Positions 35,420-39,109 of a stretch of 64,000 nt of DNA are shown in pieces (within the stretch, counting starts at the first letter, position 1; each line of letters starts with the position of its first letter). The position numbers were made by a program, and so were the translations under genes. Location: assembly GCA_051532055.1 (NCBI GenBank), contig JAOPTX010000007.1, positions 1-64,000 on the forward strand, written 5' to 3'. Under the pieces are notes generated by a model. It was given only the letters and a program-made list of their open reading frames with translations. It was not told the DNA's origin and made no database searches. Source of the DNA: Fibrobacterales bacterium. Lineage in GTDB: Bacteria; Fibrobacterota; Fibrobacteria; Fibrobacterales; JAOPTW01.

Positions 35420-35532
35420 TTCTTCTTCACACATCCCATTTTGACACATCTACATCCTTATGGGTCCCTAATTATTGTACAAATTTGAGGTTATTAGGTA
35501 CATTTAAGCCCAGAATAGCTCGAGGAATTGCA

Positions 35533-36939
35533 ATGAGAATTATAATAGTTGGCGCAGGTACTGTAGGGAAACAACTCGCAGGAAGGCTCTGTGAAGAGGG
35601 TCATGATATCATTGTTATTGATCACAACCACAACAAACTCCGCCTCCTCGAAGAGTACTACGATCTTCAGACAATTACCGGTAATGGAACGAGTGTTGAC
35701 GTACTCGAAACAGCCAACATAGCAAAATCTGATCTCGTAATCAGTGTAACCAACTCAGATGCCTCAAATGTACTTATTGGGAAACTCGCCTCCCAAATGC
35801 AACCAAAAACAAAAAACCGTGTAGCTCGAATACGCTCATCTCAATGTTTTCTTGACCCTACAATATTGACCCCCAATGATATGGGGATAAACCTTGTTAT
35901 TTTCCCCGAAGATGAAGCCGCTCGTGAAATTCACAATCTCATTTTACGTCCTTTTGCCGATCAATGTTTTCAATTCCTCGATAATAGAGTTGAAATAGCG
36001 AGTCTTACTATACAAGACAATCACAAATTGGTTAATGTCACCCCCGATCTCCTTCCTAACCTTTGTAAGCATCCATTTAAAATCGTCTGTATTGTCCGAG
36101 ACGAAACCCCCATTATTCCAGTTAACTGGCACGGGTCATTCCTCCCCGCTGATAAAATCTATATTGCAGCCGAAAATCAACATCTCACCTCTGTTGTTCA
36201 AGATCTTGGGTTCCCAGTGAAACCAATCAAAAAGATTTTTATCTATGGTGGTGATAATGTTGGCATGCAAGTAGCACGTGAATTAGAAACAACTGACATT
36301 CAAGTGAATATCATCGAATCATCAAGACAACGCACCAAAGAAATGGCTTTTCTCCTCAATAAAGCACTTGTTCTCCACGGTGAAGGAACGGATTCAAACC
36401 TATTAGAAGGTGAAGGGGTTTCTGAAGCAGAAGCATTTATTGCTGCAACTCAAGATGAAAATGCCAATTTACTCTCCTGCCTATTAGCCAAACGGCTCGG
36501 GGCCAAAAAGACCATTAGTCTTGTTGCAAAGCCAGATTTTGTACCGCTGATCTCGAACCTGAATGTCGATTCAGTGATCTCGCAACGCCTTATCACCATT
36601 AATAAAATTATGCAATTCGTTCGTCGTGGCGCCATTAAAGCAGTGGAAGAACTCATCGAAGACAAAGTCCAAGCACTACAATTCAATGTTACTGAACAGA
36701 CTCTTGTCACCAATGAAAAACTCAGTTCTTCTATATTTAAAAACGAGTTCCCATCTAATGCTATTATTGTGGGTCTTATTAGAAAAGAGAACACTGAGAA
36801 TGAGAATAACGTTGACGACGGCATTATTACAAAACGAGCTTTTATCCCTGATGGCAACACCGAGCTTAAATATGGTGATACTGTTTTACTCGTATGTGCA
36901 AATAAAACACTTCCTAAACTCGAAGAATTTTTCGCATAA
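35533..36939 (+). CDS. trkA: Trk potassium uptake regulatory subunit TrkA (tandem RCK)
   Basis: MRIIIVGAGTVG, two RCK_N/RCK_C pairs, DENANLLSCLLAKRLG. Start refined to ATG at 35533. Confidence 0.93.
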   Translation: MRIIIVGAGTVGKQLAGRLCEEGHDIIVIDHNHNKLRLLEEYYDLQTITGNGTSVDVLETANIAKSDLVISVTNSDASNVLIGKLASQMQPKTKNRVARIRSSQCFLDPTILTPNDMGINLVIFPEDEAAREIHNLILRPFADQCFQFLDNRVEIASLTIQDNHKLVNVTPDLLPNLCKHPFKIVCIVRDETPIIPVNWHGSFLPADKIYIAAENQHLTSVVQDLGFPVKPIKKIFIYGGDNVGMQVARELETTDIQVNIIESSRQRTKEMAFLLNKALVLHGEGTDSNLLEGEGVSEAEAFIAATQDENANLLSCLLAKRLGAKKTISLVAKPDFVPLISNLNVDSVISQRLITINKIMQFVRRGAIKAVEELIEDKVQALQFNVTEQTLVTNEKLSSSIFKNEFPSNAIIVGLIRKENTENENNVDDGIITKRAFIPDGNTELKYGDTVLLVCANKTLPKLEEFFA

Positions 36940-36999
36940 GTCATTCAACCATAGAAACTAAGAACTAAAACCCTAGTTTCTCAAATGTTAATTTTTTCG

Positions 37000-37027
37000 T
37001 TAAGTCCCCTTTTTTAACATCCGATAT
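37000..37027 (+). promoter_or_regulatory. Sigma28-like promoter in trkA-DUF4954 intergenic region
   Basis: TTAAG-N16-CCGATAT. Confidence 0.55.
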
Positions 37028-37035
37028 TGAAGATA

Positions 37036-37135
37036 TAGGCACCATTTGCTTTGCTAATGGAGACGCTATCATTGTATAAAGGGTTCCACGGATGGATGCA
37101 TGCTTCAAGGATGAAGGCAAGCCCTTTACCATAAA
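37036..37135 (+). ncRNA. Candidate CsrA/RsmA-binding small RNA (TwoAYGGAY-like three-way junction); boundaries approximate
   Basis: Outer stem taaagggtt/agcccttta encloses CCA-CGGA-TGG and TGCTTCA-AGGA-TGAAGGCA hairpins; extra ATGGA upstream. Confidence 0.65.
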
Positions 37136-37237
37136 TACTCTACTATTTTAAAAATTCTCTCCAGAGTTAAGAGTTCGGACTTGGGAGCAGAATCAAATTG
37201 CTATATTGCTGTGTAATAACAAACCACAGGATTTGCG

Positions 37238-39109
37238 GTGCTTGCTCAAGTAAAAAAACGGATTAAAAACTCTGAAATATTAGCGGTTTCTCAACGCATT
37301 GCCCAAAACAAGATCCCCTCATATAAATATCGCCCTCTTACTGACACTGAGATTGCCGAACTTATTCAGAATGGCAATACGTGCGATGATTGGACTCGAA
37401 TTCAGGCTGACCTACAATTCACAACTACTCAAATTCGCAACACTACCTTTTGCGGAAAGGTCTATCTCCCAAAATTCTTTGGTAATCTGATGGCACCTGG
37501 TGGAGTCTCAGTACCTGCAGGCATATTTAATTCGTCTATCAATAACAGTATTATTGAAAATTGCCACCTCTTTAATGTTTCAACACTTTCAAATACTATC
37601 GTTTCACACAGCGCCCTCCTGCGCAATGTAGGCTCTGTTATAGGCTCTGGTAAAACTCATTTTGGAGTGGGCCGCAAACTAAATATTGGTGATGAAACCG
37701 GCAACAGAACACTATTAGCGTTCCCTGAAATTGATCTTTCTATCGCAACAGCTGTTGTGATGAACAAGGAGGATATTGACTTTCAAAACGAGTATACTGA
37801 ACTCATTGAAGAATATCGAGAAAATTCTCTATCACCCTTTACCTTTATTGATCAAGAAGTAATTATTTCGAACACCACCAATATCCGAAATGCTTGGATT
37901 GGACGAAATGCCCGCATTGATGGAGCTATTCGCATTAAAAACTCTGTGATACTCAGTTCAATGGAACAGCCCAGTGCAGTCTATGATGGAGCAATCATTG
38001 AAAATGCAACACTACAATGGGGTTGTGAAGTGTGTTCATTGGCCCTTGTTGATCACTCAATACTTCTTGAAGAATCATCAGCCTCTAAGCAAGTTAAAAT
38101 AACCCACTCAGTTATTGGATCAAATACACACCCAGAATCTGGAGAAATCACCTCATCTCTCATTGGACCTTTTGTCGGCATGCACCATCAATCACTACTT
38201 ATTGCAGCGCTGTGGCCAGATGGTTGTGGCAATGTAGGCTATGGAGCTAATGTAGGGAGCAACCATACAGGGCGTCTTCCCGATCAAGAAATCTACCCAG
38301 GTCAAGGAATGTTTTTTGGCCTGAGCACTAGTATTAAATTCCCGGCAAACTACTCTAAATCACCATGGTCGCTCATAGCAACGGGAGTCACCACACTCCC
38401 TCAACGCCTTAAATTCCCCTTTTCCCTCATTACCGAAAGCCAAGGAAGCACACCACAACACCTCCTCCATCTCAACGAACTCCAGCCCGGATGGGTTTTT
38501 AGATACAATGCATTTGCCTTAGCACGAAATGAAATGAAATTTTCTAAACGAGATAAAAGTCGTCGAAATAAAGCGCCCTACACCTACATTACTAAAGAAA
38601 CTGCACAAATGGTTCTTGCGGCATGGCATCGTCTTAACACCATCGTACAAGTCAAAGAGTACTACACCGAAGAAAATATTGAAGGACTCGGAAAAAATTA
38701 CCTCACTGAATCTAAAAGGCAACAAGCGCTTATCGCCTATGCAGATTACCTCGAGATGTACGCCCTTCGACGAATCATTTCTAAACTTGAAACTAAAGAA
38801 GAGCTACTCGCTTCAGAAAAACCAACGGTAAAAAAACTATTCAATAACGACATCATGAGAGACATTGCACGCATTGTCACTTTTCCAGCCTCTACCATCC
38901 AACTCCTCAAGCGCTATCGCAAAGTCGAAAGAGCATGGACAGACGCTATAAGAGAATCAATTCAAAAAGACTTTGATCGTGGGGTTAAGGTTTTCGATGA
39001 CTACACCGACATTCACTCACCCGATGAACCTTCTCTACAATTTATTCAAGATACTTTTGATAACAATAGGAAAAGGGCAAATAACTTAATTGCCCTTGCT
39101 AAAAATTAA
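37238..39109 (+). CDS. DUF4954-family left-handed beta-helix protein
   Basis: YRPLT..EI..L..NGNTCDDW, hexapeptide-like repeats, GPFVGMHHQSLLIA, GSNHTGRLPDQE. Confidence 0.8.
   Translation: MLAQVKKRIKNSEILAVSQRIAQNKIPSYKYRPLTDTEIAELIQNGNTCDDWTRIQADLQFTTTQIRNTTFCGKVYLPKFFGNLMAPGGVSVPAGIFNSSINNSIIENCHLFNVSTLSNTIVSHSALLRNVGSVIGSGKTHFGVGRKLNIGDETGNRTLLAFPEIDLSIATAVVMNKEDIDFQNEYTELIEEYRENSLSPFTFIDQEVIISNTTNIRNAWIGRNARIDGAIRIKNSVILSSMEQPSAVYDGAIIENATLQWGCEVCSLALVDHSILLEESSASKQVKITHSVIGSNTHPESGEITSSLIGPFVGMHHQSLLIAALWPDGCGNVGYGANVGSNHTGRLPDQEIYPGQGMFFGLSTSIKFPANYSKSPWSLIATGVTTLPQRLKFPFSLITESQGSTPQHLLHLNELQPGWVFRYNAFALARNEMKFSKRDKSRRNKAPYTYITKETAQMVLAAWHRLNTIVQVKEYYTEENIEGLGKNYLTESKRQQALIAYADYLEMYALRRIISKLETKEELLASEKPTVKKLFNNDIMRDIARIVTFPASTIQLLKRYRKVERAWTDAIRESIQKDFDRGVKVFDDYTDIHSPDEPSLQFIQDTFDNNRKRANNLIALAKN

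Follow-up and report, generated by a model that had tools for sequence, protein, structure and literature searches.

A candidate CsrA-binding RNA module behind a sigma28-type promoter in Fibrobacterota, found as a flgM leader and as orphaned copies

CsrA is controlled by sponge small RNAs (sRNAs) in Gammaproteobacteria and by the protein FliW in flagellated bacteria outside that class. The sponge RNAs CsrB and RsmX/Y/Z carry many more GGA sites than the RNA considered here, and another motif, TwoAYGGAY, consists of two hairpins with GGA-containing loops (AYGGAY) and is of unknown function. Sigma28 promoters combine a TAAA-type -35 with a CCGATA-type -10 at the spacing of the class, and in Campylobacter jejuni flaA is transcribed by sigma28. 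The order Fibrobacterales is best known for non-motile Fibrobacter. Here we describe an element from a Fibrobacterales genome, in a window of 64,000 nucleotides (nt) of contig JAOPTX010000007.1 whose numbering is used throughout: a three-way RNA junction at 37073-37133 on the + strand, preceded by a sigma28-type promoter, in the 298-nt gap between trkA and a gene of family DUF4954. Judged by the alignments below, the element represents an RNA module that recurs across the phylum and is absent from Rfam. The genome of the window is called G000, its sister species G001, and other G numbers stand for further Fibrobacterota genomes.

Passages of a 2020 review (PMC7652899) describe the CsrB/Rsm sponges as driven by BarA-UvrY or GacS-GacA and as occurring where FliW is absent, and give it as still to be determined whether FliW and sRNAs cooperate in any species. 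The junction RNA is like CsrB/CsrC and RsmX/Y/Z in its proposed action, in which GGA hairpin loops would sequester CsrA, but it has no many-repeat GGA hairpins for several CsrA dimers. In C. jejuni, according to the parts of Dugar et al. (2016, PMC4894983) that treat it, CsrA is of the FliW type and canonical antagonist sRNAs are lacking; the flaA leader there carries two GGA hexaloops 21 nt apart, probably binds one CsrA dimer, and titrates CsrA besides being under its regulation, and CsrA gel-shifts flgM RNA. The flaA leader and our element share adjacent GGA loops about 20 nt apart (21 there, 18-20 here) and a CsrA of the FliW type. However, the flaA leader is attached to a flagellin gene, whereas the junction module goes with flgM or, here, with no flagellar gene; the hairpins here are set in a three-way junction, and the two RNAs share no sequence homology. 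Bacillus subtilis hag, as portrayed in passages of the review (PMC7652899), resembles G000 in its flagellin-fliW-csrA arrangement and in a leader that pairs a hairpin site with a Shine-Dalgarno site, as the flagellin leaders of G000 do; in our element, by contrast, both sites lie upstream in one junction and no target gene is adjacent. Finally, the Salmonella fim 5' untranslated region is described in part of PMC4894983 as the leader of an mRNA that binds CsrA and thereby works in trans, as we propose here, but it is still joined to its operon and does not depend on sigma28.

The original prediction had suggested testing the element for membership of TwoAYGGAY, CsrB or RsmY/Z, and this was not borne out. 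A scan of the whole window against Rfam at gathering score returned tRNA only, and at E<=10 the region 36900-37300 gave just two chance-level matches (PrfA and a CRISPR repeat) and nothing from TwoAYGGAY, CsrB or Rsm. These models also found no match at E<=1 in 14 homologous loci. TwoAYGGAY (RF01731; gathering score 43 bits, 168 model positions) had no match at E<=1 anywhere in G000, a weak test in that the same search was silent in all control genomes too. Two GGA-loop hairpins are common to both, and hairpin 1 of the junction (ACGGAU) fits AYGGAY; unlike TwoAYGGAY, hairpin 2 reads AAGGAU here, AGGGAU in G001 and AGGGAN across most copies, and the taxa differ. A limited literature search found no published description of the motif.

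The promoter (36999-37027, + strand) consists of a -35 box GTTAAGTCC at 36999-37007, a 12-nt spacer and a -10 box TCCGATAT at 37020-37027. Its core letters, TTAAG (37000-37004) and CCGATAT (37021-37027) separated by 16 nt, had been reported in the original prediction as standing before a three-way junction, and both parts of that claim held. The site scores 14.2 bits on a position weight matrix (PWM) trained on 11 promoters of G000 (flagellin-family genes, flgM and one further gene), a matrix that is not independent of the sigma28 consensus because its training sites were picked with a regular expression of that consensus. The -35/-10 variant is that of the flgM promoter of G000 on contig C92, in a near letter-for-letter match, and both boxes are conserved in G001. 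An ATAGG element at 37035-37039, 8 nt past the -10, is taken as the likely start-site region. ATAGG occurs 5-11 nt past the -10 in 8 of the 316 genomic PWM matches at >=12 bits, against a chance of 0.0066 per site, and five of those eight are flagellin or flgM promoters, all of them training sites. Each of the 20 homologues described below has a sigma28-type match within 90 nt upstream that scores above the 95th percentile of controls (random windows from the same homologous loci), with a median of 16.3 bits as opposed to -1.1 in the controls; from the end of the -10 to the aligned core the distance is 5-57 nt. Assignment of the promoter to the sigma28 class, as first proposed, is supported by these comparisons.

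Behind the promoter, the minimum free energy (MFE) fold of 37030-37150 is exactly the three-way junction. An outer stem pairing 37077-37084 with 37121-37128 closes it; the ninth pair that had been included earlier, 37085/37120, is available only as an alternative. Inside lie hairpin 1 (37085-37096, UCCA[CGGA]UGGA, or in an alternative reading a hexaloop ACGGAU), a middle helix (37097-37099 with 37117-37119) and hairpin 2 (37103-37116, CUUCA[AGGA]UGAAG, hexaloop AAGGAU), whose architecture is the same as that of a flagellin-leader hairpin of G000, CUGCAAGGAUGCAG. Both loops fit the CsrA-type consensus CANGGANG, as had been expected of them: hairpin 1 with CACGGAUG at 37087-37094 and hairpin 2 with CAAGGAUG at 37106-37113, 19 nt further on. 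In 20/20 homologues the count of [C/U]ANGGANG sites is exactly two, with 18-20 nt between them, although the core holds three GGA triplets in its 61 nt and the homologues three to six; only two are hairpin-loop sites. In passages of the 2020 review (PMC7652899), the consensus obtained for CsrA by SELEX is given as RUACARGGAUGU in short hairpin loops, with GGA in the loop, and CsrA is described as bridging pairs of sites separated by 10-63 nt, best at about 18 nt. Both loops of the element present GGA in a short hairpin loop within such a sequence, and two of them 18-20 nt apart make up the geometry that one CsrA dimer would need to clamp both sites. Further upstream, the AUGGA noted earlier is present as AAUGGAG at 37056-37062. 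It overlaps a 5' hairpin, HP0 (37042-37060, stem CCAUU/AAUGG, loop of 8-9 nt), which is part of the MFE fold; in G001 the stem is the same and the loop differs at most positions, and HP0 is confined to these two genomes, being absent from the other 18 homologues.

Comparison with other genomes is what appears to lift the element above chance. A covariance model of the core (R1) found a copy in G005, a CsrA-bearing genome of another family, at 26.8 bits; the rebuilt R2 added copies in G067 and G086, and R3, rebuilt from five sequences, added 15 more at E<=0.05 from a 151-genome sample of the phylum, with members outside the seed at 25-40 bits. In G000 the core is the sole R3 match at E<=1, at 81 bits, its own sequence being among the five of the seed. 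The model search covered the phylum Fibrobacterota, and the motif count is a lower bound because strict filters were applied whenever more than 40 genomes were searched. The 20 copies, from 20 genomes, make up alignment A6. In it, 84.8% of cells pair (36-57% in slid controls). Compensatory changes on both sides occur at 13 of the 20 modelled pairs (57 cells), and none of 500 shuffles attains the covariation score; covariation was also seen on alignment A5. Such both-side changes affect 6/8 pairs of the outer stem and 3/3 of the middle helix, and the stem of hairpin 2 covaries as well, with one pair C-G in 12 copies and U-A in eight. Hairpin 1 behaves differently: its C-G stem pairs are invariant and GGA is in the loop in 20/20 copies, and the stem UCCA/UGGA is nearly invariant, being the same in most of them. 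An independent MAFFT/RNAalifold run recovered both hairpins, with covariation in hairpin 2, and did not recover the variable outer stem. The check across relatives suggested for the junction therefore came out in its favour, and by this covariation the three-way junction is a real conserved RNA structure. Several other matches to the models were rejected: those in G009 and G135 lay inside long open reading frames (ORFs) of CsrA-lacking genomes, that in G012 was weak (17.5 bits, E 0.56), and in G079, G214, G212 and a second site of G086 the second hairpin was poor or missing or GGA was lacking.

The proteins that the proposed regulation calls for, including the CsrA homolog on which the original idea depended, are all encoded in G000 (5.17 Mb, 39.6% G+C). 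FliW (PF02623, 132.6 bits) and CsrA (PF02599, 89.3 bits) follow flagellin in one operon, and this flagellin-fliW-csrA order indicates that the CsrA of G000 is of the FliW-partnered type. FliA is present too (TIGR02479, 259.5 bits), as it is in G067, G086, G005, G002 and G057. There are 12 Flagellin_N matches, eight of them in a row on contig C36; flagellin promoters have the form yTAAAG-N11-13-CCGATA, and their leaders hold a GGA-loop hairpin, for example GCCACACGGAAGUGGC or the one cited above, followed by the Shine-Dalgarno region ACAUGGAGG. Across the order sample, CsrA occurs in 19 of 151 genomes and the accepted motif in 5/19 with CsrA and 0/132 without; in the phylum sample CsrA occurs in 79 of 151 genomes, and the 16 motif-bearing genomes all have it (0/72 among those without).

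Most copies of the module belong to flgM. The motif stands 15-50 nt before that gene in 13 of the 20 copies and is orphaned from it in the other seven. In 11 copies an ORF of 96-102 amino acids (aa) starts 15-50 nt past the core, and Pfam FlgM scores above its cut-off for ten of these ORFs, the eleventh reaching 20.5 bits; L124 and L130, judged by eye, have the same arrangement and make up the 13. By contrast with these, flgM of G000 (contig C92; PF04316, 30.8 bits) has a short leader and is not behind the motif, and in the five orphan genomes tested flgM is on other contigs. What lies downstream of the orphans varies. In G000 and G001 it is DUF4954, 104 nt away; in G005 the motif comes directly after trkA, with a sigma28-like site upstream, and has an intrinsic terminator of its own (a 12-bp stem and T-run) that starts 1 nt past it, while DUF4954 is on a different contig. 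The orphan of G067 is followed by a tRNA on the opposite strand, that of G086 has uvrB upstream and a 204-aa ORF 66 nt downstream, that of G234 has no ORF within 260 nt, and that of G155 is wedged between convergent genes; for four orphans (G005, G067, G234 and G155), no ORF in the same direction lies within 260 nt. Since the gene order is uvrB-trkA-motif in the window (trkA at 35485-36939, with TrkA_N and TrkA_C Pfam domains), and trkA precedes the motif in G005 and uvrB in G086, the upstream neighbourhood is common to three families and the downstream gene varies. Orphan copies persist in four genera, which belong to three families of the order, and in these the promoter, the loops and the compensatory stem changes are intact. 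The ancestral place of the module is that of a 5' leader of flgM. This ancestry and the FliW-partnered type of CsrA are points that go beyond the original prediction, whose idea of a sigma28-driven, CsrA-binding RNA independent of DUF4954 appears largely borne out, homologues having other downstream neighbours and the G005 copy its own terminator; taken as a whole, that prediction is partly supported.

To the explanation that we put first, we give an even chance: the element would be a flgM-leader module that has become detached from flgM, docks a single CsrA dimer and serves as a sigma28-timed decoy, and it probably also forms a long leader of DUF4954. FliA, once released, would transcribe the module from the 36999-37027 promoter, and the two hairpin loops would dock one CsrA dimer. 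Where the module is still the leader of flgM, docked CsrA would control the translation of FlgM. In G000 and at least six other genomes, where it has been separated from flgM yet retained, the detached RNA may draw CsrA off the flagellin leaders, alongside FliW, and free CsrA would fall with sigma28 activity. The transcript would continue into DUF4954 and give a long-leader isoform under sigma28 and CsrA control, since no terminator precedes that gene and read-through is probable. We infer transcription by FliA, the binding of CsrA, the decoy effect and read-through, and likewise a function as sponge, from the arrangement of these parts. A bolder claim, which we offer tentatively and at clearly less than even confidence, is that a FliW-type system outside the Gammaproteobacteria may here have its first RNA antagonist of CsrA, namely an sRNA from an orphaned flgM leader transcribed by sigma28. 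If so, the release of FliA at hook completion would directly lower free CsrA and feed forward onto flagellin translation, and it would be settled whether FliW and RNA antagonists ever work in concert.

The locus is in any case a concrete candidate for the coexistence of FliW and RNA control of CsrA. The RNA family, which Rfam lacks, is structured, tied to the sigma28 promoter class and equipped with two predicted, near-ideal CsrA sites, and throughout a phylum it would bring the translation of FlgM under the probable control of CsrA. Because the family is found both as flgM leader and as free-standing copies, a path from mRNA leader to trans-acting RNA becomes visible. It also documents flagellated, CsrA-bearing lineages inside the order of non-motile Fibrobacter. 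Most of the organisms are uncultured, and all of these readings are predictions from sequence.

A number of observations weigh against the decoy. There is no terminator between the junction and DUF4954 in the window: the scan of the + strand over 36700-37500 found none, so that a discrete transcript of about 100-150 nt, as originally envisaged, is not supported in G000, and a simple scan of the orphans in G086, G234 and G067 found no + strand terminator either. With three GGA triplets in its core, the RNA would hold one CsrA dimer where CsrB and RsmZ hold many, and a decoy of this kind would need high abundance. In FliW systems, moreover, the protein is described as the main antagonist in parts of PMC4894983. 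The motif is lacking in the CsrA-bearing G002 and in genus g11 (no R3 match in any of the 14 genomes searched, 12 of them with CsrA), which implies that the RNA is dispensable. Motif and CsrA co-occur in genomes that are related and therefore not independent observations, and the co-occurrence fits flagella or FliA equally well. As to structure, the fitting of A5 and A6 to the model biases both alignments towards its structure, and two outer-stem pairs are broken in G001 without compensation. Statistics within the single genome do not make the site exceptional. It ranks 107 among the 316 genomic PWM matches, its region folds with a z-score of +0.36 (130 of 200 shuffles are as stable or more so; the opposite strand has z = -1.29), and crude intergenic DNA of G000 has four non-overlapping tandem GGA-loop hairpins against about 4.3 expected from density. 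A pair of CANGGANG sites spaced 18-20 nt apart occurs only here in G000, with 0.48 expected. A search of sequencing runs returned no RNA run that contained 36800-37600, and in one metatranscriptome run from the same sample almost none of the sequence words of that region occurred.

A less likely alternative is that the module acts purely in cis, as the 5' part of a sigma28-dependent DUF4954 mRNA and with no effect in trans; CsrA on both hairpins, possibly bridging to a hairpin at the Shine-Dalgarno site, would tune DUF4954 translation. The DUF4954 gene (37238-39109, + strand; 623 aa; PF16314, 166.7 bits) lies outside the RNA family, and homologue N-termini back its GTG start at 37238. Apart from the missing terminator before that GTG, what speaks for such a leader is that 13 of the family's 20 copies are cis leaders of flgM and that the AGGA of the DUF4954 Shine-Dalgarno sequence sits in the loop of a hairpin (37223-37239, + strand) that reaches the GTG and is 100% conserved in G001; this hairpin may be regulatory, and its inverted repeat was picked up by the terminator scan on the opposite strand. 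Conservation around the start is also unusual. The 104-nt stretch between junction and gene (37134-37237), which holds no intrinsic terminator, is 92-100% identical to G001 over 37140-37290, and the proximal leader with the first 25 codons (37140-37312) reaches 98-100%, the highest conservation in the 4.8 kb compared. For those 25 codons, 23 are identical against a baseline of 0.578 (P = 2e-4), and such extreme conservation points to constraint at the RNA level around the DUF4954 start.

The rest of the comparison with G001 bears on the same question. The 298-nt gap aligns at 87% identity and the core at 95% (58/61 positions), with 92% over 37065-37114 in a sliding comparison that gives about 82% for coding and 60-68% for other intergenic DNA; two sequences showed no covariation between them, and from this comparison alone the evidence favoured a long DUF4954 leader. 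Searches for intermediate relatives did not widen it: when 41 genomes were compared with the gap in a blastn-type search, G001 alone matched, and DUF4954 protein searches found G001 alone among genome contigs (94%, the rest <=44%) and nothing closer than 45% among metagenome contigs (49% over one 99-residue fragment), so that neither kind of search supplied a relative of the gap in between. However, DUF4954 is universal in the order (single copy in 61/61 Fibrobacterales searched), including non-flagellated Fibrobacter that lack CsrA; its leader is short in Fibrobacter and in G002, and the junction element was absent from the upstream regions inspected. The hairpins lie 115-140 nt from the Shine-Dalgarno sequence, as against 15-50 nt in the flgM copies, and the orphans of G005, G067, G234 and G155 have no co-directional gene downstream that a cis leader could regulate. 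DUF4954 may also have its own promoter. The CTATATT (37201-37207) that had been put forward as the gene's own element is present, within an extended -10-like element TGCTATATT at 37199-37207.

Less probable again is a conserved, sigma28-driven RNA whose partner is not CsrA, be it another flagellar RNA-binding factor, a base-pairing target, or a role as 5' stabiliser. The hairpin 1 stem UCCA/UGGA, invariant in most copies, exceeds what a CsrA site confined to the loop would need, and co-occurrence cannot separate CsrA from the remaining flagellar regulon. On the other side, both loops match CANGGANG in every one of the 20 copies at a fixed spacing, and loops of this type stand in the flagellin leaders of G000 beside GGA-containing Shine-Dalgarno sites. 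An element without present function, either a former flgM leader in decay or an arrangement due to chance, would account for the PWM rank, the fold z-score and the chance number of tandem hairpins; we regard this reading as very improbable, the core being 95% identical to G001 where neutral intergenic DNA reaches 60-68%, and the orphans retaining promoter, loops and compensatory changes in four genera of three families. That the element belongs to TwoAYGGAY or CsrB/RsmX/Y/Z, as its two GGA-loop hairpins and ACGGAU might suggest, is scarcely credible with a second loop that is not AYGGAY and no match to an Rfam model of these families in the window, in 36900-37300 or in the 14 homologous loci at the thresholds given above. 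Equally hard to credit is a tiny peptide: 37096-37134 reads MHASRMKASPLP and a stop, a 12-codon frame whose stop is kept in G001 with two of four substitutions synonymous, but the other frame (37092-37151, a 19-aa ORF) has only non-synonymous changes and a different length there, and the other 18 homologues do not conserve an ORF of this kind, their stem changes being ones that compensate each other in the RNA. On the - strand, antisense to the RNA, a 55-aa ORF at 36965-37132 has no Pfam match and is probably spurious.

Several observations concern the surroundings of flagellar genes and of the module. The eight flagellin genes on C36 (150-9750) of G000 form a same-strand tandem array, and most of them have their own sigma28-type promoter, GGA-loop hairpin and ACAUGGAGG Shine-Dalgarno sequence. 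Five further high-scoring sigma28-type sites of G000 (C35:23660, C47:50032, C10:129268, C7:79272 and C7:82552) are candidates for the FliA regulon; among them, one stands before flgB (Flg_bb_rod), one before a 296-aa SprA-related protein, and one has ATAGG. In the window itself, a near-consensus sigma28-type promoter, CTAAAGGTT-N11-GCCGATAT (24.4 bits), lies in a - strand stretch at 39626-39158, whose leader has a GGA-loop hairpin GUGAGCAUGGAAACGCUCAU and then UAUGGAGGG at the Shine-Dalgarno site. The ORF behind it is 99-102 aa long and without a Pfam match, its leader and start are 92-96% identical in G001, and its probable identity is a class-III flagellar gene, as yet without a name and controlled by CsrA.

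CsrA, and FliA where it was looked for, occurs in Fibrobacterales genera g1, g2, g5, g11, g12 and g13, which indicates that motile lineages exist inside the order; neither was found in 96 genomes of the largest genus, g6. A tRNA follows flgM on the same strand in five of the 14 loci scanned (L121, L125, L127, L128 and L130, from other classes of the phylum), and motif-flgM-tRNA is thus a recurrent arrangement. In L108 (G005:C139), just past two back-to-back terminators downstream of the orphan RNA, 4-5 copies of a GTATCAGAGGC-like unit of about 10 nt are arrayed head to tail at about 1495-1545.

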